From the NCBI GenBank assembly GCA_035708065.1, contig DASSTC010000057.1, forward strand, positions 2,788-66,787: a DNA stretch of 64,000 nucleotides, in the 5' to 3' direction. Positions 47,862-63,166 of this stretch are shown piece after piece. The DNA comes from Candidatus Limnocylindria bacterium. GTDB lineage: Bacteria; Chloroflexota; Limnocylindria; QHBO01. Numbering within the stretch: the first letter of the stretch is position 1; each line of letters begins with the position of its first letter. A program made the position numbers and the translations under genes. Under the pieces are notes generated by a model. It saw nothing but the letters and a program-made list of their open reading frames with translations, had not been told where the DNA came from and searched no databases.

Positions 47862-48539
47862 TCAGCCGCGGTCGAGTCCGTGCTTGGCGACGAACGCGGC
47901 GGCCTGCGCGCGACGCTGCAGGTCGAGCTTGGCGAGAATGCTGCTCACGTAGTTCTTCACCGTCTTGTCGGAGAGGAAGACCTCGGCGGCGATCTCCTTG
48001 TTCGTCTTCCCCTCGGCGACCAGCAGCAGGATCTTGCGCTCCTGGGCGGTGAGCTCGGCGAGCTCGTCGTGCTCGTCGCCCGATGCGGCGCGCCGGACGC
48101 GCTCGAGCACGCGCTCGGTGACGGCCGGGTCCAGCAGCGAGTCGCCGCGGCCGACGGCCTCGAGCGCGGCGACCAGGTCGCGACCGCGCACCTGCTTGAG
48201 CAGGTAGCCGCTCGCCCCGGCGATGATCGCCGACAGGACGGCCTCCTCGTCCGGGTAGCTGGTCAGCATGACGACCCGGGTCTGCGGCATCTCGGCACGG
48301 ATCTCCCGGCAGGCCTCGATCCCCGAGCCGTCCGGCAGCCGCACGTCCATCACCACCAGGTCGGGCTGGAACTTGCGCGCCGCGGCCAGCGACTCGGCGA
48401 CCGTCCCTGCCTGCGCGACCACGGTGAACTCCGGCCGGCGCTCGAGCAGCGCCACGAGGCCCTGTCGCACGATCTCGTGGTCGTCCACGACCAGCAGCCG
48501 CAGTGGATGCGTCGCGTCGTGGATCGTGTCCTGTGTCAT
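47862..48539 (-). CDS. NarL/LuxR-family response regulator (DosR-like architecture)
   Basis: LLVVDDHEIVRQG, VVMDVRLPDGSG and a C-terminal LTAQERKILLLVAEGKTNKEIAAEVFLSDKTVKNYVSSI HTH; ATGA overlap with the kinase stop. Confidence 0.9.
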   Translation of the reverse strand: MTQDTIHDATHPLRLLVVDDHEIVRQGLVALLERRPEFTVVAQAGTVAESLAAARKFQPDLVVMDVRLPDGSGIEACREIRAEMPQTRVVMLTSYPDEEAVLSAIIAGASGYLLKQVRGRDLVAALEAVGRGDSLLDPAVTERVLERVRRAASGDEHDELAELTAQERKILLLVAEGKTNKEIAAEVFLSDKTVKNYVSSILAKLDLQRRAQAAAFVAKHGLDRG

Positions 48540-50029
48540 TCGCTGACGACTCCTGCATCGGTCCCGAGCGGGACGTCGAGGATGATACGGGTGCCGGCGC
48601 CCGGCTGGCTCACGATCTGGAACCCGGCGCCCATGCGCGTGGCACGATCGGCCATGTTGCGCAGGCCGCGGTGGCTCGTGCCGACCTTCGCCGCGGCGTC
48701 GAAGCCGCGGCCGTCGTCGGCGATCTCCAGGTGCAGCTCGCCCTCGGCCGGCTCGATCGAGATCGTGGCGTGGCTCGCCTGCGCATGGCGAGCGACGTTG
48801 GCCAGCGTCTCGCGGACGATGCTCAGCAGCTCGCCCGACAGGTCGACCGGCAGCGGCCCGGGGTCGCTGCCGCGCACGTCGATGTCGACCGCCGAGTTGA
48901 GGCGCACCTCGTCGGCCAGGGTCTCGAGGGCGAGCAGCAGGCCGCCCTCCTCGAGCAGCACCGGTCGCAGGCCGAAGATGAAGCCGCGGATCTCGTTGAT
49001 CGTGCCGTGCAGCGAGTCGATTGCGGCGTCGACCCGCGCGGCCGCCTCCTCGGGCGCCTCGCTGACCAGCTCCGGGACGTCGTCAAGCGACAGCGTGACG
49101 CCGTAGATGCGCTGGATGATCGTGTCGTGCAGATCGCGGCTGATGCGCTCGCGCTCGGTGACGATCCCCAGGCGACGCACCCGATCATGCAGGCGTGCGT
49201 TCTCCATGGCGATCCCGCTGTGCAGCGCGAAGCGCTCGACGAGCCGCTGGTCGTCCTCGTTGAACTCCGGCGCTCCCTGCTTCTCGGTGAGGTACAGGCG
49301 GCCGATCGACCGTTGGCCGACGGTGATCGGCACCCCCAGGAACGAGCGCATCGCCGGGTGGTTCGGCGGGAAGCCGTAGCGTCGCGGGTCGGTCGTGATG
49401 TCGGCGATGCGATAGGCGCGGTTCTCGCGGATGATCAGGCCCAGCAGTCCTCGTCCCCGCGGCAGCGAACCGATGCGCTCGCGCTGCTCGTGGCTCATGC
49501 CCGAGGTCACGAAGCGCTCGATGACCCCGTCCTCGTCGACGATGCCGAGCGCGGCGTACGTGGCGTCGACCAGCTCGCGCACGCGGTCGACGATGCCCTG
49601 CAGCACGCCGTCCACGCTCTGCAGACCGGCAATGCCGCGAATCGCCACGTCGAGGGCGGCGAGGTTGCCCTCGGCGCGTCGGGCGCGGGCCTCGCCGTGG
49701 ACCGATTCGAGCGCCAGGCCGACCGCGTGGCGCAGCAGCGAGGCCGCCTCGCCGTCCGGCGGATCCAGCGCCAGGCGGCCGAGCGCCGCCGGCGCGCCGA
49801 CCGGGCGGCCGCCGGCCGCGGCATCCGCGACGAGCGTTCCGCAGCCCACCACCACCCCGGCGAGGGGCGGCGCGTCGATCAGCAGCGCCGCTCCCCGGAA
49901 GCCGAGCTGCTCGGCGAGGAGCTGAAGGGTGGACGCGATGCGATCGCGCTCCGCATCGGTCCGCCCATCCTGCCAGGCCGACACAGCGTCGATGAGGTGA
50001 GTCAGCGGCAGCGCGACCGGGTCAGGCAT
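48536..50029 (-). CDS. GAF-domain sensor histidine kinase (HisKA_3 type, DosS/DevS-like architecture)
   Basis: GAF block GFPPNHPAMRSFLGVPI, H-box ERERISRDLHDTIIQ, and HATPase blocks NVARHA and DDGRGF. Confidence 0.85.
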   Translation of the reverse strand: MPDPVALPLTHLIDAVSAWQDGRTDAERDRIASTLQLLAEQLGFRGAALLIDAPPLAGVVVGCGTLVADAAAGGRPVGAPAALGRLALDPPDGEAASLLRHAVGLALESVHGEARARRAEGNLAALDVAIRGIAGLQSVDGVLQGIVDRVRELVDATYAALGIVDEDGVIERFVTSGMSHEQRERIGSLPRGRGLLGLIIRENRAYRIADITTDPRRYGFPPNHPAMRSFLGVPITVGQRSIGRLYLTEKQGAPEFNEDDQRLVERFALHSGIAMENARLHDRVRRLGIVTERERISRDLHDTIIQRIYGVTLSLDDVPELVSEAPEEAAARVDAAIDSLHGTINEIRGFIFGLRPVLLEEGGLLLALETLADEVRLNSAVDIDVRGSDPGPLPVDLSGELLSIVRETLANVARHAQASHATISIEPAEGELHLEIADDGRGFDAAAKVGTSHRGLRNMADRATRMGAGFQIVSQPGAGTRIILDVPLGTDAGVVSE

Positions 50030-50195: not shown

Positions 50196-51551
50196 ATGAC
50201 CAGGATCTTCATCTTCATCTCGGCGTTCGTCAGCATGGCGCTGCTTACGCTCATCTACACGCAGGTCGCACAGCAACCCGCCGTCGCCCAGGCCGAGAAC
50301 GGCGGAGCGAACCAGGGCACGCTGGAGATTCACGCCTTCGACCTCGGCTTCAAGCCGAACATGCTCCACGTCCCGAACCCGGGGCGTTACACGATCAAGC
50401 TCGTCAACGACGGTGCGATGCCGCATGACTTCGCGACGGCCGATGGCACGGTGATCGTCGCCGCGCAGGCGGGCGAGACGGTCACCGCGGAGATCGACGT
50501 GCCGGCCGCCGGATTCGACTTCATCTGCTCCATCCCCGGCCACGCAGCCGCGGGCATGACCGGCAGCATCATGGTCGATGGCGGCACCGCCGGGCGGCCG
50601 AACGCGACACCGGCGCCGAGCATGGGCGATCACGGCGGTCCCGGGGCGGCGCTGCCCGCCAAGGACCCCAATGCCCCGAAGTACGAGCTCCGCGATCCCA
50701 CCGCACCGAAGCTGATGTCGGGCAAGGTCCACGACATCACCCTCGTCACCGAGGAGAAGCTGATGACCGTGGCCGACGGCTACGTGCAGAAGGTCTGGAC
50801 GTTCAACGGCACCGTGCCGGGTCCAGTGCTGCGGGTGAAGGTCGGTGACACGGTGCGGATCCACCTCCAGAACCCGAAGACCAGCCAGATGAACCACTCG
50901 GTCGACTTCCACGCCTCGATGGTGGCCTGGAACGACGAGATGACCGATATCGCGCCGGGCCAGGAGAAGCTCTACGAGTTCACGGCCGAACATGCGGGCG
51001 TGTGGATGTACCACTGCGGCACGGCGCCGACGCTGCATCACATCGCCAACGGGATGTACGGCATGATCATCGTCGAGCCGACCGCGGGCCTGCCGACGGT
51101 CGACGCCGAGTACGCCATCGTGCAGAGCGAGTGGTACCTCGGCCCGCAGGGCCAGCCGACCGATCTGACCAAGGCCTCGGCCGGTGCGCCGGATCCCGAC
51201 TTCGTGGTCTTCAACGGCGTGGCCAACCAGTACAAGGACAACCCGATCAAGGTCAAGACCGGCGAGCGCGTGCGGATGTTCATCCTGGACGCCGGACCGA
51301 GCGTGGACAGCTCGTTCCACATCGTTGGTACGATCTTCGATGACGTGATCAAGGAAGGCATCCACCTGAAGCGCGGCAACGATGGCTCGTGGGGCTCGCA
51401 GGCCGTCGACCTCTCGCCGGCGCAGGGGGCGATCGTCGAGTTCACCACGGCCGAGGATGGCCTCTACCCGATGGTGACCCATGCGTTCAACCTGGTTGGA
51501 CGCGGAGCGCTGGGCTTGGTCCAGGCCGGTGACGGCGATCCCCTCAACTGA
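50196..51551 (+). CDS. nirK: copper-containing nitrite reductase with N-terminal cupredoxin extension
   Basis: HSVDFH (T1/T2 Cu His), YHCGTAPTLHHIANGMYG (His-Cys...His...Met) and the class-II marker SSFHI. The N-terminal extra domain has cupredoxin ligands PHDF...CSIPGHAAAGM. A signal/TM segment follows ATG 50196. Confidence 0.85.
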   Translation: MTRIFIFISAFVSMALLTLIYTQVAQQPAVAQAENGGANQGTLEIHAFDLGFKPNMLHVPNPGRYTIKLVNDGAMPHDFATADGTVIVAAQAGETVTAEIDVPAAGFDFICSIPGHAAAGMTGSIMVDGGTAGRPNATPAPSMGDHGGPGAALPAKDPNAPKYELRDPTAPKLMSGKVHDITLVTEEKLMTVADGYVQKVWTFNGTVPGPVLRVKVGDTVRIHLQNPKTSQMNHSVDFHASMVAWNDEMTDIAPGQEKLYEFTAEHAGVWMYHCGTAPTLHHIANGMYGMIIVEPTAGLPTVDAEYAIVQSEWYLGPQGQPTDLTKASAGAPDPDFVVFNGVANQYKDNPIKVKTGERVRMFILDAGPSVDSSFHIVGTIFDDVIKEGIHLKRGNDGSWGSQAVDLSPAQGAIVEFTTAEDGLYPMVTHAFNLVGRGALGLVQAGDGDPLN

Positions 51552-51555
51552 TCCG

Positions 51556-52836
51556 ATGGACCTGGCCATCGGTCCGATGCCGGAGCGGCGCGATGCCGCT
51601 CCGGCATCCGCACGCCTGAGCGAACGCTCCGTCCTGCAGCTGGGCATCGGCCTGGCCGCGGGCTTCGTCGTCCTGTCGCTGGTGACCGGCGTCGTGCCGC
51701 TCGGCCCGCTGCACGGCTGGGTGGCGATCCACCTCGCGCTGGCCGGCGCCACCACCGTGGCGATCGGCACGTTCATGCCTCACTTCGGGGTGACGCTGGC
51801 CGGCACCCGGCCGGAGCCCGTCGCCGCGCGGCTCGCCGGCGTCCTGTCGCTGGCAAGCGGCATGGCGCTGGTCGCGCTCGGGCGACCGCTGCTCGGCGAT
51901 CACCTGGCTGCCGGCGGCGGCGTATTGGTGCTCATCGGCCTCGGCATCACGGCCTGGAACACGTATGCACCGATGCGCTCGGGCCTGACCCGGCGCCACC
52001 CGATCGTGCAGGTCACCTACGGCGTGGCGCTGGCCGACCTGGTCGTGGGTGCCACGCTGGCCACGTTGTTCCTGCTCGGCTTCGCGCCGGTGACCGGTGC
52101 ATGGGTCGCGCTCAAGCCGGCCCACGCCTGGCTCAACGTCTTCGGCTTCGTGTCGCTGACGATCGCCGGAACGCTGATCTACCTCTATCCGACGATGCTC
52201 GGCACCCGCATCCGGCCCCACTGGACGATGGTGATGGCCGTCATCGGCCTGCTGGTCGGGCCGCCGGTGGTGGCCATCGGATCCGCGCTCGAGTCGCAGG
52301 CCGTGGCGGTGGTCGGCGGCGCGGTCGCGCTGGCCGGTGCCATCGGTCTGCTCGGCTACGGCCTCGAGATCCGGAGCCGCCGCGGCCGATGGGCGAACGA
52401 CCTCGCCTGGCACAGCCTCACCGCACGCCACGGCCTGGCCGGCATGGCGTGGTTCGTGGTGACCGTCGCCGTGGCGCTGGTGGGCCTCGTGCGTAACGGC
52501 GCAGCCGTGCCCGGCTGGACGCTTGGATCCATGGCGCTGCCGCTCATCGGCGGCTGGGCCCTGCAGGAGCTGGTGGCGGCCTGGGGCCATCTGCTGCCGG
52601 CGGTCGGCCCGGCCGACATGGCGGCCAAGGCCCGCCAGCGTGCCGTGCTGTCGCGGCTCGCGCTGCCTCGGGTCATCGCCTGGAACCTGGGCGTGGCGCT
52701 GGCCTGGATCGGCCTCGGCCTGTGGATGCCGGTGCTGATCGGGTTGGGCGCGGTGCTGCTGGGTGGCGCAGTGGTCACCGCGCTCGTGTTGCTCGGCAGG
52801 GCGCTGAGCATCGGACAGGCACGCCGGTCATCCTGA
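51556..52836 (+). CDS. polytopic His-rich membrane protein (about 12 TM; NnrS-like suspected)
   Basis: Starts 4 nt after the nirK stop; 426 aa. Intramembrane His motifs IHLALAGATTVAIGTFMPHF, AHAWLNVFGF and AAWGHLLP. Confidence 0.7.
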   Translation: MDLAIGPMPERRDAAPASARLSERSVLQLGIGLAAGFVVLSLVTGVVPLGPLHGWVAIHLALAGATTVAIGTFMPHFGVTLAGTRPEPVAARLAGVLSLASGMALVALGRPLLGDHLAAGGGVLVLIGLGITAWNTYAPMRSGLTRRHPIVQVTYGVALADLVVGATLATLFLLGFAPVTGAWVALKPAHAWLNVFGFVSLTIAGTLIYLYPTMLGTRIRPHWTMVMAVIGLLVGPPVVAIGSALESQAVAVVGGAVALAGAIGLLGYGLEIRSRRGRWANDLAWHSLTARHGLAGMAWFVVTVAVALVGLVRNGAAVPGWTLGSMALPLIGGWALQELVAAWGHLLPAVGPADMAAKARQRAVLSRLALPRVIAWNLGVALAWIGLGLWMPVLIGLGAVLLGGAVVTALVLLGRALSIGQARRSS

Positions 52837-53327: not shown

Positions 53328-53831
53328 CTAGTGTGCCGTGGCCGGCGTGGCGATCATCTCGGCGATCTCATCTGCCCAGCTGTCGATCGCGTCCCATTCG
53401 CGGAAGTCGCCGTATGGCGCGCGGACCAGGCCGACGATCGCCCGCTCGCCGAAGCCGAGCTGCGCTCGCTCGAGGGCCCCGCTGAAGACGCGATGCCCGA
53501 CCGCGGAGACCTGGCGCACCAGGCCGTCGACCTCGACCGCGTCCCCGGCCGGAACCGGCGGCTCGCCCAGCGGACCGCTCGAGAAGAGCCACACGGCACG
53601 GTCGCGCAGGGTGTCCGCCTGGCGCTGCACGAACTCGGTGGCGCTCTTCATCCAGTGCCCGGCGTAGACGGCGCTGCCGATGATCACCGCGTCGTACCCG
53701 GCCGCCGACCCGACGACCTCGGGTGGCAGCACTTCGACGTCGACCCCGCGTTCACGGAGCCGCTGTGCAAGTGATTCGCCGATCTCGGCGGTCGCGCCGT
53801 GCTTCGAGGCGACCGTGACCAAAGCTCTCAT
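53328..53831 (-). CDS. flavodoxin-domain protein (HemG-like long-chain type)
   Basis: MRALVTVASKHGATAEIGESLA...AVIIGSAVYAGHW...GDFREWDAI pattern. Confidence 0.8.
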   Translation of the reverse strand: MRALVTVASKHGATAEIGESLAQRLRERGVDVEVLPPEVVGSAAGYDAVIIGSAVYAGHWMKSATEFVQRQADTLRDRAVWLFSSGPLGEPPVPAGDAVEVDGLVRQVSAVGHRVFSGALERAQLGFGERAIVGLVRAPYGDFREWDAIDSWADEIAEMIATPATAH

Positions 53832-54011: not shown

Positions 54012-54518
54012 TCACTCGGGTCGACGGTGCGAAACGTACTCGCCGGCGGGGCGGCGGAAGCCGACCGACAGCCGGTTCCAGCCGTTGATGGCGATGATCG
54101 CCAGCGTCAGGGCGACCTGTTCGGCCGCGTCGAACTCGCTCGCCATCCAGTCGTAGTCGTCGGCCGGCGCGCCGGTCTGCGGCAGCAGCGTCAGCGCCTC
54201 GGTCCAGGCCAGCGCGGCGCGCTCGCGGCTGCTGAAGTCGGGCGCCTCGCGCCAGACCGCGACCATGTTCAGTCGCTGCTGGTCCTCGCCGATGGCCAGC
54301 GCGTCCTTGGTGTGCATGTCGACGCAGAAGGCACAGCCGTTGAGCTGCGAGGCGCGCAGCTTGACAAGCTCGCGGAGCTTCGGCTCGAGCGTGCTGTGAT
54401 GGACGACCGTCTCGAGCGCCGACATGGCGCGGGTCGCCTCGGGGAGGGCTTCGTTGTAGTCGAGCCGGGGCTCCTCGACGGCGTGTGCGGTATGGCGTTG
54501 GATCAGTTCGGTGGTCAT
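54012..54518 (-). CDS. carboxymuconolactone decarboxylase-family (AhpD-like) protein
   Basis: LRASQLNGCAFCVDMH CxxC motif of CMD/AhpD proteins; AGGAGAA SD before ATG 54518. Confidence 0.85.
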   Translation of the reverse strand: MTTELIQRHTAHAVEEPRLDYNEALPEATRAMSALETVVHHSTLEPKLRELVKLRASQLNGCAFCVDMHTKDALAIGEDQQRLNMVAVWREAPDFSSRERAALAWTEALTLLPQTGAPADDYDWMASEFDAAEQVALTLAIIAINGWNRLSVGFRRPAGEYVSHRRPE

Positions 54519-54525
54519 GGTTCTC

Positions 54526-55266
54526 CTAGTACCCGGTGAATTCTTCACTGCGAATGTCGTCCTCGTCGACGGCCATCTCGGCCAGCACGGCGCGCATGGC
54601 GCGCACCATGCCGGCCGGGCCGGCGAGGTAGTAGATCGGCTGCTCGATGCCGTCGAGGTGGCGTCGCAGCATGTCGGCGTCGACATGGCCGCGCTCGCCG
54701 CCCCACGCGTCGGCCGGCTGGGGAGCGGACATCACCGGCACGAACGCGAGCTTCGGCTCGCGCTCGGCAAGCTGCCGCAGCTCGTCGGCAAAGGCCGCAT
54801 CGGTCGGGCGCCGGTTGGCGTGGATCAGCACCACCCGATAGGGGAGCGACCCGCCGTGCATCTGCTCGACAAGGATGCTGCGGAACGGGGTGATCCCAAC
54901 GCCGCCGGCGAGAAGCACGGCCGGGCGCTGCGCATGGTGCAGCCGGAAGTCGCCGAACGGTCCCTCGAGCTTCATGCTGGTGCCCAGCGGCACGCGCTGC
55001 AGGACACGCTTGAACGCGGTATCGCGCAGTCGGGTGGTGATCTGGATGATCTCCTCTGACGGTGCGCTGGAGACCGAGAAGCCGCGTGTGTTGCCCTCGG
55101 CATCGGTCTCGGGCGGATCGTGCAGCGTGATATCGATGAACTGACCGGCCCGGTACGTCCAGTCCGCGGGCTTGGCCCAGCGGAAGCTCATCGTGCGGTC
55201 GGCGACCAGCTCGCGGCTGACCAGCGGTGCCTCGAAGACCGGCCAGGCGACGGTCTCGGTGCTCAT
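54526..55266 (-). CDS. FAD/NAD(P)-binding ferredoxin-reductase-type (FNR-like) oxidoreductase
   Basis: RGFSVSSAP (RxYS-type FAD motif), GPFG and LLAGGVGITP NAD(P) motifs; 246 aa. Confidence 0.85.
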   Translation of the reverse strand: MSTETVAWPVFEAPLVSRELVADRTMSFRWAKPADWTYRAGQFIDITLHDPPETDAEGNTRGFSVSSAPSEEIIQITTRLRDTAFKRVLQRVPLGTSMKLEGPFGDFRLHHAQRPAVLLAGGVGITPFRSILVEQMHGGSLPYRVVLIHANRRPTDAAFADELRQLAEREPKLAFVPVMSAPQPADAWGGERGHVDADMLRRHLDGIEQPIYYLAGPAGMVRAMRAVLAEMAVDEDDIRSEEFTGY

Positions 55267-55431
55267 GCGGGCACCCGTGACCGCGCGAGATTCGCGCGGC
55301 GCCAGCCGCCGTTCGCCATGGCGATCGTCGCGAGCTCGAAGGTGATCAGGCTGGTGTTCGGTACGAGCTCGCTCGACATGTGAGCACTGGTTCCTCTCTG
55401 CTTCCGATGATGGTGGTGGCAGACCGATGCA

Positions 55432-56574
55432 TCAGTCGATCCGCACGATTTCGCGCTGCAGGGTGTGGGCGGGGCGCCGCTCGGGGCGCGGCCGCGCGCC
55501 GCGGCGCAGCGACAGCCCCTGGACCACGGCACCCGCCGACGAGCCGACGAACAGCAGCAGGGCGATCACGTTCAGCACGCCGCCGGTCTGCCACAGCGCC
55601 TGGTTGCCGAGCAGGTCCCCCCCGACGATGCGCACCAGCAGCCCGGCGTGCAGCAGGACGAGGTGCGCGTAGAAGCGCGGCCGGTAGGGGAGCGGCACGC
55701 GCAGCACCGCCGGCACGATCACCGGCGCATGGCCGAAGACCATCGACATCACGAAGCCGAGGAAGATGGCGTGCAGCATCGTGTCGTAGGCGCTGCCGGC
55801 AACGCTGGCGCCGAACGCCAGCCAGGCGATGCCGCCGACCGCCAGCCAGGCGTAGCCGATGAGCAGGCAGAGCGCGATGAACCGCGTGACGCCCTGCATG
55901 CGGACGGTCCGGCGGGCGAGGTCGTGGGCCGCCAGCCAGGCGGTCAGGGCCAGCAGACCGATGCCCGCGACCCGCATCCCGAGGTCGGGCAGCACGAGGG
56001 ACACGGCCACCCCGGCGACGAAGGGGAGCGCCGCGGCGACGAATGTGGCTCGGGCGCTCGGCGACAGCTTTCCCAGCCGCGACAGCTCGAGCCGCTCGCC
56101 GGCGATGACCAGCACCAGGAATGCGGCGAGCCAGGGAATGATGGCGCTCACCGGCCGGCCGGCAACCCACAGGAGGGCGGCGACCGCCCACCCCACGGCG
56201 CCGACCGCCTGGACCCGGGTGTGCAGCGCGACCTCGATGCGGTCGAAGGCGACGTACATCGCCATGAGCACGATGCCCGCGGCCAGCAGCAGCGCGCCGG
56301 CGAGCACGTCGGGCGCGCCGACCAGCAGCGCAACCCCGCCCAGCCCGGCGGCCAGTGGCGAAGCGTAGGCCCAGCGCGCGCCCAGCGCCACGGCGCGCTC
56401 AAGCGCGATCATCGTGCCGAGGAAGCCGAGCGCCATGAGCAGGCCGTGGGCGGCCGCCAGGTGCGTGGCGGCGCTCGGCATGCCAATCCCGAGCAGCACC
56501 AGCGCGCCGGTCAACCCGCCGAGCAGCGCCGCTCCGCCGAGGGCCAGCAGCGCGAGGCTGCGACGGTTGATCAT
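55432..56574 (-). CDS. polytopic His-rich membrane protein (NnrS-like suspected)
   Basis: 380 aa, about 12 TM. Motifs AAHGLLMALGFLGTMIALE and LHAIFLGFVMSMVFGHAPVIVP; ATGA overlap with the DUF59 gene. Confidence 0.7.
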   Translation of the reverse strand: MINRRSLALLALGGAALLGGLTGALVLLGIGMPSAATHLAAAHGLLMALGFLGTMIALERAVALGARWAYASPLAAGLGGVALLVGAPDVLAGALLLAAGIVLMAMYVAFDRIEVALHTRVQAVGAVGWAVAALLWVAGRPVSAIIPWLAAFLVLVIAGERLELSRLGKLSPSARATFVAAALPFVAGVAVSLVLPDLGMRVAGIGLLALTAWLAAHDLARRTVRMQGVTRFIALCLLIGYAWLAVGGIAWLAFGASVAGSAYDTMLHAIFLGFVMSMVFGHAPVIVPAVLRVPLPYRPRFYAHLVLLHAGLLVRIVGGDLLGNQALWQTGGVLNVIALLLFVGSSAGAVVQGLSLRRGARPRPERRPAHTLQREIVRID

Positions 56575-56924
56575 CGGCGCCAGCCGAGCTGGGCCTTGGC
56601 CGTATCGGTCATCAGGTCCGGTGACCAGAGCGGGTCGTAGGTGACCTCGATGTCGACGTCGAGCACCCGGTCGAGGCCGAGCAGCGCCCAGCGGATGCCG
56701 TCGCTGAGGTACGGCCCGAGCGGGCAGGCGGGCGTCGTGGTGGTGATGAGGATGTTCGCCACGCCATCGGTCACCGAGGCGTCGTAGACCAGGCCGAGGT
56801 CGACGATGTTCACGCCGAGCTCGGGGTCGATCACGTCCCGCAGGCGCTCGTCGAGCTCGTCGCGGGTCACCTCGCTGGAGAGCAGCGCCGCCACGTCGAG
56901 CGGCTGGTCGAGTTTGTCGTTCAT
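56571..56924 (-). CDS. DUF59 (SufT/MIP18-type) Fe-S assembly-related protein
   Basis: VIDPELGVNIVDLGLVY...TTPACPLG signature; ATGA overlaps at both ends. Confidence 0.8.
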   Translation of the reverse strand: MNDKLDQPLDVAALLSSEVTRDELDERLRDVIDPELGVNIVDLGLVYDASVTDGVANILITTTTPACPLGPYLSDGIRWALLGLDRVLDVDIEVTYDPLWSPDLMTDTAKAQLGWRR

Positions 56925-57577
56925 GGCCGCGATCCCACGTGCGCCAAGCAGAGGGTCGGCTCGACGAACGGCTCGAGGCGCACCTCCTCGTACGGCGCGC
57001 CGAGCTCCTCCAGCGCCCCGCGCATCAGGCCCAGGTGGACGCCGCAAACCACGTCACCGCGGTCGCGGGCGAGCCGGCCGAACGGGCAGGCGTGGAGCCG
57101 GATCGGGTCGCCGGCGTGCGCGGGTGCCTCCGGCGAGAAGCCCGCGTCGTCGAGCAGGTCCACCAGCTGGCCGACGGCGTCGTCGCCGCTGTCGTCCGCG
57201 GCGCCGGCCAGCGCGCGGCCCCAGCGCTCCCCGGCACGGCGGGCCGCGGCGTGCGAATCGGGACGTCGGGCGAGCTCGTCGGCCAGGACCGTGGCCAGCG
57301 CGCGGTAGGGCGCCGCATCGTCATCGGTCGCGCCGGGTGCGACGCGGTAGCGGATCGATGGGCGGCCTCGACCGCCGGACCGGGCGAATTCGGTGACGAC
57401 CAGTCCGGCGCCGATCAGCTGCTCGAGGTGTTCGCGCGCGGTGTTCGGGTGGAGATCGACCGCATCGGCCAGATCGCGGATGCCCATCGGCTCCGGTGCC
57501 GCCTGGCGCAGGACGGTCAGCAGCCGCGAGCGGCTGACGCCCGCGAGCAGGCGATGTCGGTCGAGTGACGGCGTCAT
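56921..57577 (-). CDS. winged-HTH (ArsR/SufR-like) regulator with C-terminal Cys/His domain
   Basis: SRSRLLTVLRQAAPEPMGIRDLADAVDLHPNTAREHLEQLIGAGLV wHTH. C-terminal LHACPFGRLA...VVCGVHLG...TLCLAH. Confidence 0.75.
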   Translation of the reverse strand: MTPSLDRHRLLAGVSRSRLLTVLRQAAPEPMGIRDLADAVDLHPNTAREHLEQLIGAGLVVTEFARSGGRGRPSIRYRVAPGATDDDAAPYRALATVLADELARRPDSHAAARRAGERWGRALAGAADDSGDDAVGQLVDLLDDAGFSPEAPAHAGDPIRLHACPFGRLARDRGDVVCGVHLGLMRGALEELGAPYEEVRLEPFVEPTLCLAHVGSRP

Positions 57578-57579
57578 GC

Positions 57580-57609
57580 TTGCATTTTGCACGGAAGTAG
57601 GCGTAAATA
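57580..57609 (+). promoter_or_regulatory. candidate sigma70-type promoter for the hemerythrin operon
   Basis: TTGCAT, 18 nt, TAAATA in the most AT-rich stretch of the window, about 40 nt upstream of ATG 57650. The -35 overlaps a TTGCA-TT-TTGCA direct repeat 4 nt from the divergent regulator ATG. Confidence 0.45.
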
Positions 57610-57649
57610 TCAAGTGTCCACACCCGCGGGCCCCAAGGAGCCACCCGAG

Positions 57650-58120
57650 ATGATGACCATGACCGACCAGCAGGCAGCCGATGCCATGCATGCCCACCAC
57701 GAAGAGATGAGCACGGCGCTGCGACAGCGCGTCGCGGCCCTGGGTGCCGCCGTTCAGTCGCGGCAGGGGCATTTCGACCAGCAGCGTGCCGTCCTCGACT
57801 ACCTCGAGCACGACCTGCTGCCGCACGCCATGGCCGAGGAGAAGGCGCTCTATCCGGCCGGTGACAGTGGCCTCACCGCCATGCTGGTGCGGGCGATGCT
57901 TGCCGAGCACCGGAATCTCATCGCGCACGTCGATGCGTTCCGCAACGCGACCGATGCCATCCAGGCGGTCGCGCTGTCGAGCGCCATCCTGGCGCTCTTC
58001 GAATCGCACCTGTCCAAGGAGAACGACCTGCTCATCCCGGCGCTGGTCGCCGACGAGCACGTCTCCCTGGTCGAGCTGCTGGGCGGCATGCACGAGCTGC
58101 TCGGCGAAGGCCACGCATGA
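57650..58120 (+). CDS. hemerythrin HHE cation-binding domain protein
   Basis: HHEEM, LLPHAMAEEKALYP, EHRNL and ESHLSKENDLLIP His/Glu ligand pattern. AAGGAG SD lies 9 nt before ATG 57650. Confidence 0.8.
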   Translation: MMTMTDQQAADAMHAHHEEMSTALRQRVAALGAAVQSRQGHFDQQRAVLDYLEHDLLPHAMAEEKALYPAGDSGLTAMLVRAMLAEHRNLIAHVDAFRNATDAIQAVALSSAILALFESHLSKENDLLIPALVADEHVSLVELLGGMHELLGEGHA

Positions 58121-58590
58121 CCGATGCCGCCGTCGACGGGCTGGCCGGGGTGCTCATCAAAGCCCTGCGACGGCTTGGCACCGCCGGTCAGCCCGAGGCG
58201 GCCAGCCGCCTCGGCGCGGAGGCCTACGTCCTGGTGCGGCATGACCAGCCGCGCATCGCGGAGCGCCTGAACGGCGTGATGCACCATCTCGCGCGGCTCG
58301 AAGCCGCGCTCGAATCCGAAAGGAGCACACCGGTGACCGATGATCTCGTCCTCGACGTTCGCAGCGAGCCGCCCATCCGACGGCACGGCCTCATCTTCGA
58401 GACGTTCGACAAGCTCGCCGTCGGCACGGCATTCGTGCTGGTCAACGACCACGACCCGAAGCCGCTCTACTACCAGCTGGCCGCCGAGCAGGGCGGCACG
58501 TTCAGCTGGGACTACCTGGAGCAGGGCCCGCAGGTCTGGCGCGTCCGGATCGCTCGAACCGCGGAAGCCGATGTCGCTCAGCCGGCCTGA
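58117..58590 (+). CDS. DUF2249 domain protein
   Basis: LDVRSEPPIRRHGLIFETFDKLAVGTAFVLVNDHDPKPLYYQL...FSWDYLEQGPQVWRVRI is the DUF2249 pattern; ATGA overlap with the hemerythrin stop. Confidence 0.8.
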   Translation: MTDAAVDGLAGVLIKALRRLGTAGQPEAASRLGAEAYVLVRHDQPRIAERLNGVMHHLARLEAALESERSTPVTDDLVLDVRSEPPIRRHGLIFETFDKLAVGTAFVLVNDHDPKPLYYQLAAEQGGTFSWDYLEQGPQVWRVRIARTAEADVAQPA

Positions 58591-58593
58591 CCG

Positions 58594-58785
58594 ATGATGC
58601 ACATCCCGATCGAGGCGCCGCGCGATGAGCGTGCGTTGCTCGAGCTCGGGGATCCTGCCGGCCGCGCGACCCATGCCGATGGTGGCCTGACCCCATGGGC
58701 GTGTGGCTGCTCGGAGGACGCCGCCGTGTGCAACGACGAGCGCTGCGTCGACATCGTCCCCGAGCTGTTCGTCGAGCTGATCTGA
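58594..58785 (+). CDS. small Cys-rich hypothetical protein (63 aa)
   Basis: Starts 3 nt after the DUF2249 stop; C-x-C-x7-C-x5-C (WACGCSEDAAVCNDERCVDIVPELF); GC3 mostly high. Confidence 0.4.
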   Translation: MMHIPIEAPRDERALLELGDPAGRATHADGGLTPWACGCSEDAAVCNDERCVDIVPELFVELI

Positions 58786-59195
58786 CGCTCACCCTGCCGA
58801 CCGGTCGCCTCGCGGCGCTGCTGCGCGGCGCGGCGACCGGTGATCTCCTGCCGCCCGCGACCGTGGAGTTCGGTCGCGCGCGCCGCCTCGATGCGACCGC
58901 GTTCGTGCTGCCCGGCACCGGTCGCATCGAGGACTATGTCGCCGCGCTGTCCGGCGAGGCTCCCACCTTCGCCGCGTGGGACGGGCGCATCGCCGTCGTC
59001 GAGCCGGATGGCGCGACACCGCACCGGGTGGTGATCGTCGATCGCTACGGCCAGGTCTACGAAGCCACCGACGCGGAGGGCACCGCGGGGTTGCCGACGG
59101 TGGCGGCCCTCGAGGAGTGGTTCAGGTTCCTGGCCACGGCGTGCCCGGAGTGCGGCGTGCTCGACGACCCGCGACCGCGGGACTGGACTCCGTAG
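58695..59195 (+). CDS. hypothetical thioredoxin-fold-like protein, start unresolved
   Basis: The convincing coding part runs from about 58786 (LTLTLPTGRLAALL...VVIVDRYGQVYEATD...ATACPECG). The only upstream start codons give an Arg-rich overlap with the previous ORF. Confidence 0.45.
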   Translation: MGVWLLGGRRRVQRRALRRHRPRAVRRADLTLTLPTGRLAALLRGAATGDLLPPATVEFGRARRLDATAFVLPGTGRIEDYVAALSGEAPTFAAWDGRIAVVEPDGATPHRVVIVDRYGQVYEATDAEGTAGLPTVAALEEWFRFLATACPECGVLDDPRPRDWTP

Positions 59196-59586: not shown

Positions 59587-59843
59587 GTCACACCTCCTCG
59601 GGTTCACTCGTGTGTCGACATGCTCAGGATCGGCGGCCGATTCGCGACCGTTGAGTGCCAGAGGTCGTCAATCGGCGGGTACGTTCGGCCCGAATCGGCG
59701 GCGCGCCGCTGCTGCGGCCGGGTTCGGGCCATTGGTCGTCGATCGCGATGACGGGCGGCCCTTCCACGGCGGCGGGCCGACCGCCGAGGCTTGCATGAGC
59801 AGCCGGCGAATCCAGAGCGTGGCGCCGGCGGAAGGAGATGGGC

Positions 59844-60305
59844 ATGAAATCGGTAGTGATCTACGCGTCTCACGCCGGGAACACGCGGCGCATCGCCGAG
59901 GCGGTCGCCAGGGCGCTTCGCACGGCAGGCCCGACGGAGGTGATGCACGCCGAGCAGGTGATGGCGCTCGAGGACGACGTCGACCTGCTCGTCATCGGTG
60001 GGCCGACGGAGGGCCACGGTCCGACGCCGGAGATCAAGGACCTGGTGCACCGCATCGCCGGCACGGTGCGCGGCCTTCGCGCAGCCGCGTTCGACACGCG
60101 GCTGCAATGGCCGAAGCTGCTCTCGGGCTCGGCCGCCGCGGCGATCGGCGCCTCCCTGCGTGCCAGCGGCGCGCGGGTGGTGCTGCCGCCGGAAAGCTTC
60201 ATCGTATCGATGAAGCCGGAGCTGCTGCCCGGAGAGGAGGAGCGCGCGACGGCCTGGGGCGAACAGCTCGTGAACCGCGTCGCGGAGCTGGCCATCCCGG
60301 TCTAG
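59844..60305 (+). CDS. flavodoxin-family protein
   Basis: MKSVVIYASHAGNTRRIAEAVA...DLLVIGGPTEGHG pattern; AAGGAG lies 7 nt before ATG 59844. Confidence 0.8.
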   Translation: MKSVVIYASHAGNTRRIAEAVARALRTAGPTEVMHAEQVMALEDDVDLLVIGGPTEGHGPTPEIKDLVHRIAGTVRGLRAAAFDTRLQWPKLLSGSAAAAIGASLRASGARVVLPPESFIVSMKPELLPGEEERATAWGEQLVNRVAELAIPV

Positions 60306-60865: not shown

Positions 60866-61756
60866 TCAGCCGGGTGCGCGAACGACCAGGACCGATGCGC
60901 CGGCGTGCTGGATCACGTTCCGCGCCACGCTGCCCAGCGCCCCGGGGAAGCCGGTCGAGCTGCGTCGCGAGCCGGTGACGATCAGGTCAGCTCCGATCTC
61001 CCTGGCCAGCTCGAGGATCTCCTGGGCCGGGTTGCCGGTGGCGACCCGGGCTTGCGCCTCGACGCCCGCCGCGCGCAGCCGTTCGGTGGCGACCCGCGCA
61101 ACCTCACGGTGCGTGGCGAGCCGCTCGTCGGCGAGCTGAATCTCGAGCTCGGCCCACGCTGCCGACCCGAATCCGCCGGCGCCGACGCCGACGAGTGACG
61201 AGATCGGCTGGCTGACGCTGACCACGTCGACCGGCATGCCGCGAACGATCGGCCAGGAGGCGACCGCTTCGACGGCGGGTTCCGAGGTGGCCGTGCCGTC
61301 GCTGGCCAGCAGGACGTGGCTGACCGACGGCGCGCGCGCGACGAGCACCGAGCAGTGCGCCTGGCTGCTCACCTCGGTTGACACCGACCCGAGCAGCGCC
61401 GAGCGAATGACACCATGTCCGCGGCTGCCCATCACGATCAGGTCGGCATTGATGCGCTCCGCCTCCGCCCGGACCGCGGCGCCCGGATGGCCGCGCAGCA
61501 CCGCGCTCTCGACGCGACGGCCGGGGCCGGAAAGCGCACGGACGACGGTCTGCAGCTCCGCGGCAAGGTCCTCGACCAGCTGGGCATCGGCCTCCGCCGG
61601 ATCGACCGGCACGCTGCCGAGCTCGAACAGCGATGAGCGCGGCCGGAGCACCGTCACCGCTTCGATGTAGCTGTCGTCGGGTAAGTCGAGGTGGGCGAGC
61701 AGGTCGCGCGCCTGCTCCGAGCCCGCCGATCCGTCGTACGCGTAGAGCACTCGCAT
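60866..61756 (-). CDS. universal stress protein, tandem UspA domains
   Basis: Two repeats, each ending in the ATP-binding-type motif (VMGSRGHG...VS and IVTGSRRSSTG...GSVA); GGGAG SD before ATG 61756. Confidence 0.85.
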   Translation of the reverse strand: MRVLYAYDGSAGSEQARDLLAHLDLPDDSYIEAVTVLRPRSSLFELGSVPVDPAEADAQLVEDLAAELQTVVRALSGPGRRVESAVLRGHPGAAVRAEAERINADLIVMGSRGHGVIRSALLGSVSTEVSSQAHCSVLVARAPSVSHVLLASDGTATSEPAVEAVASWPIVRGMPVDVVSVSQPISSLVGVGAGGFGSAAWAELEIQLADERLATHREVARVATERLRAAGVEAQARVATGNPAQEILELAREIGADLIVTGSRRSSTGFPGALGSVARNVIQHAGASVLVVRAPG

Positions 61757-61936
61757 CCGCAATCTCCCGTTGGGTCTGTTCACGCCCAGCATGGCCGCGC
61801 CGGCGGACGTTGAACAGGGCCACTCGGCCGGTCGGCGAGCGCCGAGCACGAGGCTCGCCGACCGAGGGCCGAATGGCACGACCCTTCACGACGCGCGGCA
61901 CTCGCCAGCGCGGCGGCCCGGACCGAGGCTCAGTGC

Positions 61937-62359
61937 ATGAACGACACTGAGCAGCCGCTGAACCTGGTGCTCTTTTCGGGCACCGATGACAAGCTCGAGG
62001 CGGCCGCCGTCCTGGCCGCCGGAGCGGCGGCCCTGGGCCGGCCGGTCCACATCTTCCTGCAGTACTGGGCGCTGAACGCGTTCCGATCGGACGGCATCGG
62101 CGGCGACCACGGGCTCGCCGCGGAGGCCGGGGAGGCCGGCCGCGCATCGGTCGATGCGCTGGCGGCGGCCGGGCAGTCGGGCTGGCCGGAGACGCTGCGC
62201 CAGGTCAAGGAGATCGGCGAGGTCGATATCCAGGCCTGCTCGCTGTCGATGGACCTGTTGCATCTCGAACCCGGCGACCTCGATCCACTCGTCGACGGCG
62301 TGGAGGGCGTGACCTCCTTCTGGCTGTCGGCGGCAAGCGGCCAGGTCGTCTTCATCTGA
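61937..62359 (+). CDS. DsrE/DsrF-like sulfur-relay family protein
   Basis: LNLVLFSGTDDKLEAAAVLAAGAAALG...IQACSLSMDL, 140 aa. Confidence 0.75.
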   Translation: MNDTEQPLNLVLFSGTDDKLEAAAVLAAGAAALGRPVHIFLQYWALNAFRSDGIGGDHGLAAEAGEAGRASVDALAAAGQSGWPETLRQVKEIGEVDIQACSLSMDLLHLEPGDLDPLVDGVEGVTSFWLSAASGQVVFI

Positions 62360-62370
62360 CGGAGAACGCC

Positions 62371-62607
62371 ATGACCACCATGACCATCAATCAGCGGGTG
62401 GACGCCCGCGGCTTGTCCTGCCCGATGCCGATCGTCAAGGTCGCACAGACCATGAAGCAGCTCGGCGCAGGCGAGACGTTGGAGATGCTCGCCACGGACC
62501 CCGGGTCGGTGCGCGACGTCGAGGCCTGGGCTCGGACGACCGGACACCAGCTGCTCGAATCGACGACGGACGGCGGCGTCTACCGCTTCGTCCTGCGCCA
62601 CAAGTGA
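62371..62607 (+). CDS. TusA/SirA-family sulfurtransferase
   Basis: DARGLSCPMPIVK CPxP active-site motif, 78 aa. Confidence 0.85.
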   Translation: MTTMTINQRVDARGLSCPMPIVKVAQTMKQLGAGETLEMLATDPGSVRDVEAWARTTGHQLLESTTDGGVYRFVLRHK

Positions 62608-62617
62608 GGCGATCGAC

Positions 62618-63166
62618 ATGACGCTGACCGTTGACCGCCCGGTCGAAGCACCGGCGGTCGAACCACAGCCAACCATCGACGAGCCGCTGAAGACGAAGGA
62701 GCTCGTCATCGTCAACTGGAGCGGCGACCTCGACAAGATGTGGCCGGTCCTGATCCTGTCGTCGACCGCTGCCGCCAGCGGCGTCCACTGCAAGGTGTTC
62801 GTCACCTTCTGGGGGCTGCTGCCGTTCGTCAAGGACGGGAAGCGGATCGTGGGCGACAACTGGATGCAGAAGATGCTGTCGCTGATGCAGCGACCGGGCA
62901 TCGACCACCTCAAGCTCTCGAAGATGAACTTCTTCGGGATGGGCCCCTGGATGCTGGACAGCTTGCGCCGCCGGTACAACGTCGCCAGCCCGCGCGAGCT
63001 GCTCGAGGCCGCCCTGGCGATGGGCGTCGAGTTCGTCCCGTGCCAGATGACGATGGACATGTTCGGGCTCAAGCGCGAGGACCTGGTCGACGAGATGGGC
63101 GAACCGGCCGGCGCGGCCACCGCGATCGCCCTGATGACCGAGGCCGATGCCTCGCTCTTCATCTGA
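62618..63166 (+). CDS. DsrE/DsrF/DrsH-like family protein
   Basis: LVIVNWSGDLDKMWPVLILSSTAAASG...FVPCQMTMDMFGL, 182 aa. Confidence 0.75.
   Translation: MTLTVDRPVEAPAVEPQPTIDEPLKTKELVIVNWSGDLDKMWPVLILSSTAAASGVHCKVFVTFWGLLPFVKDGKRIVGDNWMQKMLSLMQRPGIDHLKLSKMNFFGMGPWMLDSLRRRYNVASPRELLEAALAMGVEFVPCQMTMDMFGLKREDLVDEMGEPAGAATAIALMTEADASLFI

Follow-up and report, generated by a model that had tools for sequence, protein, structure and literature searches.

Organisation of the locus

The 64,000-nucleotide (nt) stretch of DNA analysed here, called the window throughout, comes from a Candidatus Limnocylindria bacterium of the Chloroflexota (GenBank assembly GCA_035708065.1, contig DASSTC010000057.1, positions 2,788 to 66,787) and has a GC content of 65-76%. 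Six open reading frames (ORFs) on its minus strand form an operon that encodes, in order of transcription, an ArsR-like regulator, a DUF59 protein, a membrane protein of 380 amino acids (aa), the product of a mini-ORF, an FNR-like reductase and a CMD protein (Table 1). All six lie where an original prediction, made from the sequence alone, had placed them. The ATGA overlaps that it reported at three junctions (56921/24, 56571/74 and 55263/66) are present in the sequence, and with these overlaps and a gap of only 7 nt between the FNR-like and CMD genes the tightly coupled operon that it described is borne out. Its domain calls also agree with Pfam and NCBIfam, which give HTH_20/HTH_5 for the regulator, FeS_assembly_P for the DUF59 protein, NAD_binding_1/FAD_binding_6 for the reductase, and CMD with a CAFC motif for the last protein. 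What it overlooked is the haem-copper-oxidase/nitric oxide reductase (NOR) fold of the 380-aa protein and the obligate-looking partnership of this protein with DUF59. These two features, together with the genes that surround the pair in other genomes, point on balance to a role in handling nitric oxide (NO).

Table 1. Features of the locus in order of position in the window. L088 is a closely related contig.
Feature	Position	Strand	Length	Remarks
GAF-HisKA_3 histidine kinase and LuxR-type response regulator	47862-50029	minus		adjoin nirK
NirK	50196-51551	plus		Cu-oxidase_3, Cu-oxidase_2, Cupredoxin_1 and Copper-bind domains
Second membrane protein	51556-52836	plus	426 aa	12 transmembrane helices; translationally coupled to NirK
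CMD protein	54012-54518	minus	168 aa	
FNR-like reductase	54526-55266	minus	246 aa	
Mini-ORF	55263-55379	minus	38 codons	doubtful as a gene
Spacer with mini-ORF	55267-55431	minus	165 nt	insertion in the window and L088 only
Membrane protein	55432-56574	minus	380 aa	
DUF59 protein	56571-56924	minus	117 aa	
ArsR-like regulator	56921-57577	minus	218 aa	
Divergent control region	57578-57649		72 nt	between the regulator and hemerythrin genes
Hemerythrin-domain protein	57650-58120	plus	156 aa	PF01814; first gene of the divergent operon; true ATG at 57650
DUF2249 protein	58117-58590	plus	157 aa	PF10006, 101 bits; overlaps the hemerythrin stop codon
Cys-rich ORF	58594-58785	plus	63 aa	CxC-x7-C-x4-C pattern; no Pfam family
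Second ORF after DUF2249	58695-59195	plus	137-166 aa	no Pfam family

The DUF59-membrane protein pair recurs across phyla

When one genome per species was scanned, 594 relatives of the 380-aa family were confirmed, and 80 loci were kept. Companion genes were counted within 3 kilobases (kb) of the membrane gene in the 49 loci that have at least 3 kb of sequence on each side. Clusters of neighbouring ORFs drawn from this high-GC DNA included many shadow-frame clusters; we used only those confirmed by Pfam or tblastn. A DUF59 gene accompanies the membrane gene in 32 of the 49 fully flanked loci, nearly always directly upstream and on the same strand, and a DUF2249 gene does so in 28. An ArsR-like regulator was found in 14, a hemerythrin in at least 12 and NirK in 8, and 41 of the 49 carry one or more of these five companions. 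The FNR-like and CMD genes each occur in 2 of the 49, and the mini-ORF in none. Over 81 species-level loci, 15-17 have NirK close to the membrane gene. At loci without the ArsR-like type, the regulator slot is taken by Rrf2 (6 loci) or Crp/Fnr (9 loci), in the company of cupin and ferredoxin genes.

The hosts of these loci include Chloroflexota, Actinomycetota (Actinomadura, Spirillospora and Nocardiopsis), Nitrospira, among them N. defluvii, Thiobacillus denitrificans, Rhodocyclales, deltaproteobacterial lineages, Binatia and Calditrichaceae, and the pairing of DUF59 with the membrane protein is found in at least seven phylum-level lineages. Judged by the set that is conserved across loci, the unit is therefore DUF59 plus the membrane protein, accompanied by DUF2249/hemerythrin and an NO-type regulator. 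The original prediction had treated all six genes as one system and had named conservation of the gene neighbourhood as one way to check it. The DUF59/membrane core is conserved across phyla, but the FNR-like and CMD genes occur only in some Limnocylindria relatives (3 of the 5 close ones), and a six-gene system does not survive these counts.

Among close relatives, five (71-99% identity) share a hemerythrin-DUF2249 pair that diverges from the regulator, DUF59 and membrane protein genes. After the membrane gene, FNR and CMD follow in three of them (L085, L086 and L088), whereas an EamA gene or a NirK pair is found there instead in L001 and L087. At positions 9233-13580 of L086 (73% identical), the operon is followed by genes for EamA, cytochrome c and a NarG-type nitrate reductase, which ties the module in that contig to genes of nitrate respiration.

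The DUF59 protein itself is cytoplasmic and a conserved partner of the 380-aa protein. It matches PF01883 with 58.4 bits (cut-off 23.5) and has the TPACP cysteine motif, and it falls under the equivalog cut-offs for SufT (79.7 vs 202.6), the SUF-associated family (74.7 vs 143.4) and PaaD (66.2 vs 180). In four proteins (P0155, P0184, P0263 and P0217), DUF59 is fused N-terminally to the membrane protein, whose N-terminus should therefore lie in the cytoplasm. Other members of the family are joined to redox proteins: in P0124, an extra 13th helix leads to a cupredoxin and then to a NirK with 36% identity to that of the window, and in P0214 a 13th helix leads to cytochrome c. P0167 carries an N-terminal VKOR domain, and in P0211 a relative of the window's second membrane protein is joined to the 380-aa family. 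Such fusions speak for a membrane protein that is coupled, physically and by electron transfer, to periplasmic redox proteins on one side of the membrane and to DUF59 on the other.

The membrane protein resembles NO reductases in fold and lacks their six histidines

The 380-aa protein has 12 transmembrane helices and belongs to a family of 2353 clusters at 50% identity, whose members are labelled hypothetical in every source. Scans of the protein against Pfam and NCBIfam gave no family, and none even at E=10. An AF2 model built from 31 sequences (pLDDT 85, pTM 0.84) consists of 12 long helices, and when it was compared with the PDB by Foldseek, 8 of the top 9 matches were oxidase or NOR chains (P. 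aeruginosa NorB, CcoN, qNOR and aa3). The best eight matches have a TM-score (TMq) of 0.55-0.68 and a probability of 0.99-1.0, the aa3 subunit of M. tuberculosis being a poorer fit at rank 8; the other matches listed are unrelated folds with TMq of at most 0.32. The 12-helix core with three-fold pseudosymmetry that marks oxidases and NORs is thus present in the 380-aa protein, as judged by AF2 and Foldseek together. The underlying repeat can be made out weakly in the sequence, as FLGTMIALER / FLVLVIAGER / FLGFVMSM..GH, with hhalign E values of 0.3-0.5 that are not significant. The corresponding segments, FLGTMIAL-E59-R, FLVLVIAG-E160-R and FVMSMVFG-H282-A, each lie in the second helix of a four-helix unit.

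Eleven residues are invariant in the family down to 36% identity (H43, R60, E160, R161, W213, D218, Y241, W243, H268, H282 and R315), and E59 is kept in 31 of 32 sequences. The description of this protein as 'His-rich' in the original prediction was an overstatement, for only three of its histidines, H43, H268 and H282, are invariant. H118, H304 and H309 vary, and helices 6 and 7 of the family hold no conserved histidine, so that the six histidines of oxidases and NORs are not there. Because three invariant histidines cannot build a haem b3-FeB centre, the 380-aa protein cannot be counted as a canonical NOR. Of the three, H43 belongs to helix 2 and H268 to helix 10; in oxidases, to go by the NorB structure, the ligands of the low-spin haem come from these two helices. 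One haem with bis-His ligation would be the simplest reading of these two residues.

Searches by sequence placed the family in none of the known groups that we tried. A family profile found no match among PDB chains at E=10. Membership in NorB was rejected, with an hhalign probability of 0.2% and no Pfam COX1 match at E=10, and so was membership in NnrS, for which the Pfam NnrS model was silent at E=10 and hhalign of the family alignment against the NnrS of S. meliloti pSymA gave a probability of 0.5%, in a comparison whose power is limited by its single template sequence. The S. meliloti NnrS and NorB sequences were derived from ORFs.

A regulator with a conserved Cys/His set faces a divergent control region

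The regulator combines an ArsR-type winged helix (approximately residues 9-80) with a C-terminal domain of about 130 aa. Pfam assigns it to HTH_20 (32.5 bits) and HTH_5 (24.5 bits), both over their cut-offs, and also to HTH_IclR; no Rrf2 domain was found in it by Pfam. With 23.4 bits against a cut-off of 55 it falls outside the ArsR/SmtB subfamily NF033788, and its candidate ligands lie in the separate C-terminal domain. For that domain we found no named family and no solved relative, and its homologues are described only as 'predicted ArsR family'. SufR was considered and rejected, as the match to TIGR02702 reaches 20.5 bits against a cut-off of 178.8 and covers only residues 33-80, within the winged helix.

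The original prediction had drawn attention to the arrangement HACPF...VVCGVH...C.AH as a possible site for a metal or Fe-S cluster. The motif is present, but across approximately 26 true homologues (36-68% identity) only Cys164 (of CPF), the pair Cys178-x2-His181 and Cys210 are invariant, whereas His162 and His213 vary. Sets of three cysteines and one histidine are typical of Fe-S or zinc sites, and the conservation of this one supports the idea that the regulator could hold such a cofactor; we propose that it is a metal- or Fe-S-sensing repressor. Because of this residue set, and because Rrf2 and Crp/Fnr regulators replace this protein in other phyla, sensing of NO or of redox state is the best reading of its function.

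The regulator gene is separated from the divergent hemerythrin gene by 72 nt, all of which (72/72) are identical in the window and L088, whereas the genes of the two contigs are only 95.5-99.2% identical. Within this region, a 40-nt block (57578-57617) is near-invariant in nine Chloroflexota loci whose proteins are 49-99% identical, some of the regulators at only about 50%. A promoter scan placed a minus-strand promoter, TTGATA-N18-CAAAAT, in the block; it ends 6 nt before the ATG of the regulator, and the regulator mRNA should therefore be leaderless. A plus-strand sequence, TTGCAT-N18-TAAATA, reads as the promoter of the hemerythrin operon and would overlap the minus-strand one face to face. 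The same block contains the element TGCAAAATGCA, which occurs once in the 64-kb window and is likely to be the operator.

The hemerythrin-DUF2249 operon and its downstream neighbours

Homologues of the hemerythrin-domain protein were detected by tblastn in 24 of 88 loci and are present in all five close relatives. The protein consists of the hemerythrin domain without a ScdA domain, and it scores 17.9-22.8 bits against the RIC/YtfE/DnrN models, whose cut-offs are 204-300; its similarity to the di-iron domain of those proteins is weak and sub-threshold. Conservation in L085, L087 and L088 extends to the two ORFs that follow the DUF2249 gene, which are probably part of the same operon.

Flavodoxin_5-type genes flank the module in the window, at 53328-53831 (minus) and 59838-60305 (plus), and a flavodoxin gene also lies near the DUF2249 side in L085 and L088. 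Beyond the module, positions 60866-63166 hold tandem universal-stress protein genes and DsrE-family genes. The equivalent stretch of L088 contains, in addition, genes for TusA and a pyridine-nucleotide disulfide oxidoreductase, which suggests a wider stress/sulfur island.

NirK and a second oxidase-like membrane protein

On the other side of the operon, at a distance of 3 kb, lies a gene for NirK, the local source of NO. This NirK carries a membrane anchor at its N-terminus and, in addition, a cupredoxin domain. The start listed for it at 50028 is probably 56 codons too early, and the NirK of L088 has 451 aa. The gene is directly followed by that of the second membrane protein, for which there is no Pfam match. 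Its AF2 model (pLDDT 88) finds NorB (3o0r_B) as the top Foldseek match with E 5.5e-5, followed by CcoN and RdNOR (Roseobacter NOR), and its invariant histidines are H59, H76, H148 and H190. It also follows NirK in L001, L087 and L088. A BLASTP comparison of the 380-aa protein with the corresponding 451-aa ORF was empty, and we rejected homology between the two. By their models, the locus thus holds two sequence-unrelated oxidase-fold proteins flanking NirK. Homologues of the second protein carry the JGI label 'nitrite reductase (NO-forming)', presumably carried over from fusion proteins. A very hydrophobic ORF of 452 aa between nnrS and nor on S. meliloti pSymA (L084, 18232-19590, minus) was compared with it as well and is not similar by BLASTP.

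The histidine kinase and response regulator that adjoin nirK in the window stand beside NirK in L001 and L087 too. We liken this pair, as an assumption of ours, to the haem-GAF DosS/DevR type of NO/hypoxia sensor.

The FNR-like and CMD genes and the mini-ORF are lineage-specific

The FNR-like protein is a two-domain NAD(P)H:flavin oxidoreductase without an Fe-S or globin domain. Its best partial matches in NCBIfam are the reductase domain of flavohaemoprotein, BenC and Fre, and its relatives in the PDB are BenC, NqrF, MmoC, flavohaemoglobin and Fre. It is not an Hmp: its alignment to the profile is confined to the reductase half (positions 184-392 of 399), with 100 bits against a cut-off of 432. 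The CMD protein matches PF02627 (85.6 bits) and the AhpD core model TIGR00778 (65.2 vs 27.8), with Atu0492 and PA0269 as its closest solved relatives, and its gene has the same distribution as that of the FNR-like protein. The two genes are a lineage-specific extension of the operon, and the membrane-associated redox chain that the original prediction saw in the membrane protein, FNR and CMD is such an add-on at most.

The mini-ORF lies in an insertion. In L085 and L086 (73-74% identity) the spacer between the membrane and FNR genes measures 19-20 nt and contains a GAAAGGA ribosome-binding site, whereas in the window and L088 it is greatly enlarged and the FNR gene has no ribosome-binding site of its own. 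All three substitutions that separate the mini-ORF of the window from that of L088 are non-synonymous, and a 1-nt indel lies just upstream, whereas synonymous changes outnumber non-synonymous ones in the real genes (22 vs 5 in the membrane gene). Its GC content at third codon positions (GC3) reaches 0.87; GC1, however, falls below GC2, a pattern that the real genes do not show. No family was found for it, no homologue outside the L088 contig and no Rfam match; the RNA fold of the spacer is unremarkable (z = -1.9), and the insertion is not repeated in the window. Because it is absent from other relatives, changes non-synonymously and belongs to no family, the mini-ORF is probably not a conserved gene, and its place among the operon genes, which the original prediction had granted, finds no support. 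Were it translated, its sole effect might be translational coupling to the FNR gene by way of the ATGA overlap.

Discussion

We consider it somewhat better than an even bet that the locus is a nitric-oxide-responsive accessory module of denitrification with a role in handling NO; in any specific reaction of the DUF59-membrane pair our confidence is much lower. The context gives strong backing to a nitrosative link, which the original prediction had suggested: a NirK gene stands at a distance of 3 kb and, at other loci, next to the membrane gene or fused to it, an operon for hemerythrin and DUF2249 diverges from the same control region, regulators of the Rrf2 or Crp/Fnr type take the place of the ArsR-like one in other phyla, and in Cupriavidus necator H16 the module lies near norB.

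The mechanism that we propose begins with a winged-helix repressor that would use its 3-Cys/1-His cofactor site on the overlapping divergent promoters, and that would let go of them once NO or a related signal had altered the cofactor, turning both operons on. The rightward operon would supply a hemerythrin-type di-iron protein and the DUF2249 protein; the leftward one would supply the regulator, the cytoplasmic DUF59 protein and the 12-helix, NO-reductase-like membrane protein. In the latter, His43 of helix 2 and His268 of helix 10 would hold a single putative b-type haem close to the outer face, like the low-spin haem of oxidases. Glu59, Glu160 and His282, at matching positions in their helices, would lie close to the cytoplasmic face and could form a docking site for the DUF59 cysteine. 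The pair might then bind or turn over NO made by the adjacent NirK, or iron-nitrosyl species derived from it, drawing electrons from periplasmic copper or cytochrome c partners. In the Limnocylindria lineage of the window, NAD(P)H could be a further electron source, by way of the FNR-like flavin reductase encoded in the same operon, and the AhpD-like protein may add a thiol-based defence against peroxide or peroxynitrite.

Several observations weigh against a role in NO handling or against parts of this mechanism. Eight of the 49 fully flanked loci contain none of the companion genes. The Foldseek E-values of the 380-aa model are weak (0.01-0.15), though its TM-scores and the exclusivity of its matches are good. 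An active site of the NOR type is excluded for this protein, the six histidines being absent, and no chemistry has been defined for NnrS either, the most familiar of the oxidase-homology proteins. No copy of the operator motif was detected ahead of nirK in the window. The sequencing runs that contain the locus are soil metagenome DNA and one ambiguous low-depth run, with no usable expression signal. Finally, most loci have neither FNR nor CMD, so that a route driven by NAD(P)H cannot hold in general.

The same genes could instead serve the repair or assembly of metal centres, much as the original prediction had inferred for Fe-S and haem, with DUF59, hemerythrin and DUF2249 rebuilding Fe-S, haem or copper centres damaged by NO (for example in NirK or respiratory enzymes) and the membrane protein acting as a scaffold or as a conduit for iron or copper, with no action of its own on NO. 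DUF59 belongs to an Fe-S assembly accessory family, the hemerythrin is weakly similar to the RIC/YtfE/DnrN repair proteins, and the fusions of DUF59 to the membrane protein would fit a delivery complex; NnrS, too, reportedly shields the cellular iron pool from NO instead of removing NO. Yet both soluble proteins score far below the equivalog cut-offs of SufT, the SUF-associated family and RIC, suf, isc or copper-chaperone genes do not recur in the neighbourhoods, and the joining of the membrane protein to cytochrome c and to NirK in fusions speaks for electron transfer, which leaves repair an unlikely main function in our estimate. Electron transfer might, however, be directed at nitrite rather than NO, if the oxidase-like proteins tether NirK and pass it electrons from quinol or, through the FNR-like protein, from NAD(P)H. 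The NirK joined by an extra helix in P0124, the quinone-linked VKOR domain of P0167, and the second oxidase-like protein, which always comes after NirK, is fused to the 380-aa family in P0211 and bears the JGI label of an NO-forming nitrite reductase, all fit such a conduit. Set against it are the scarcity of NirK, within 3 kb in only 8 of the 49 loci, the cupredoxin donor domain that the NirK of the window already has, and a single haem, which would not be enough to bridge the membrane; such a conduit would also leave the association with DUF59, DUF2249 and hemerythrin without an explanation, and we regard this use of the pair as very unlikely.

A purely sensory role like that proposed for DrpA and DrpB of Thermus, in which DUF2249, hemerythrin and the membrane protein would act as detectors of nitrate, nitrite, NO or oxygen and tune denitrification genes without any enzymatic activity, seems to us highly improbable. 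Hemerythrin domains are often sensors of O2 or NO, and a dedicated regulator is always adjacent; in Thermus, moreover, the DUF2249 protein DrpA, with DrpB, affects expression of the nar and dnr operons (PMC6282519). The membrane protein, however, has no recognisable output domain and is fused to redox proteins, not to kinases or cyclases, and the locus already has its own regulator and a DosS/DevR-like two-component pair beside nirK. Returning to NO handling, its most specific form would make the DUF59-membrane pair a new enzyme that converts NO, by reducing it or consuming it in some other way, with a bis-His haem, a cytoplasmic metal site of Glu, Glu and His (perhaps with the DUF59 Cys) and, in one lineage, a supply of NAD(P)H electrons through FNR; together with the second membrane protein it would be the NO sink of NirK-bearing Chloroflexota, Actinomycetota and Nitrospira that have no evident canonical NOR. 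We hold this enzyme to be decidedly unlikely in just that form.

NO is a toxic and climate-relevant intermediate between nitrite and N2O, and among soil and water bacteria there are many that have NirK but no recognised NO reductase. Should the pair turn out to handle NO, a gap in gene inventories of the nitrogen cycle would be closed and DUF59 and DUF2249 would gain a concrete role, and an ArsR-type regulator with a Cys3His site would, if the proposal is true, join a short list of NO sensors. Because culturable hosts carry the system (C. necator H16, Thiobacillus denitrificans, Actinomadura, Spirillospora and Nocardiopsis), it is directly testable.

Comparison with known systems

In 2014, Pei, Li, Kinch and Grishin (Protein Sci) reportedly described oxidase homologues of 12 helices in three units, with two conserved histidines, one predicted haem and a place in denitrification or NO detoxification. 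The 380-aa family is probably a member of these 'HCOH' oxidase-homology families. It may be likened to the NnrS-like oxidase-homology proteins of NO regulons and is widespread, with no experimental study. The statement in the original prediction that no system of this composition had been described holds for experiments, but on the computational side Pei et al. 2014, as cited in a passage of a later paper, reported oxidase-homology families near DUF2249 genes (PMC11218638). In Haloferax, DUF2249 genes are induced under denitrification (PMC11218638), and in Thermus DrpA and DrpB are needed for nitrate respiration (PMC6282519). Passages of a comparative study of NO regulons name nnrS and dnrN as core members; the DUF59 module is not described in those passages (PMC1274295).

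NnrS (PF05940), which contains haem and copper, offers a close parallel, being of similar size to the 380-aa protein and likewise built of 12 helices. We take it to be one of the oxidase-homology proteins that Pei et al. proposed in 2014. It is under the control of NsrR, NnrR, DNR or NorR and adjoins nirK, according to passages of the NO-regulon study (PMC1274295), and the 380-aa family similarly occurs near Rrf2, Crp/Fnr, NirK and norB. The two have no sequence relationship, however, and NnrS is not paired with DUF59. NorB, CcoN and qNOR are the best structural matches of the models of both membrane proteins of the locus and share with them the context of denitrification; the 380-aa protein is approximately 70-370 residues shorter than they are and has three invariant histidines to their six.

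The same module occurs in C. necator H16, where genes H16_RS32665-H16_RS32645 of megaplasmid pHG1 encode DUF59, a member of the membrane protein family, Rrf2, DUF2249 and hemerythrin. The family member, annotated as a hypothetical protein, is 42.5% identical to the 380-aa protein over 55% of the query, and the module starts approximately 4.4 kb downstream of norB, past the anaerobic ribonucleotide reductase genes nrdD and nrdG. It differs from the module of the window in having an Rrf2 (NsrR-like) regulator in place of the ArsR-like one and in lacking FNR and CMD genes.

For the FNR-like protein there is a counterpart in Hmp and in the Legionella pair glbN-lpg2536, a haem protein and ferredoxin reductase of the NsrR regulon that passages of the NO-regulon study propose as a split NO dioxygenase; in both, a NAD(P)H reductase of the FNR family serves a haem protein within an NO regulon (PMC1274295). 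The haem partner in the window would be the oxidase-like membrane protein rather than a globin as in Hmp. The pairing of Fre with the membrane haem protein MsrQ provides a precedent for such an arrangement. The regulator, lastly, resembles SufR and NsrR/IscR, which also combine a winged helix with three cysteines and one further ligand. It belongs to neither family, and regulators of the NsrR type hold the equivalent position beside the module in other phyla.

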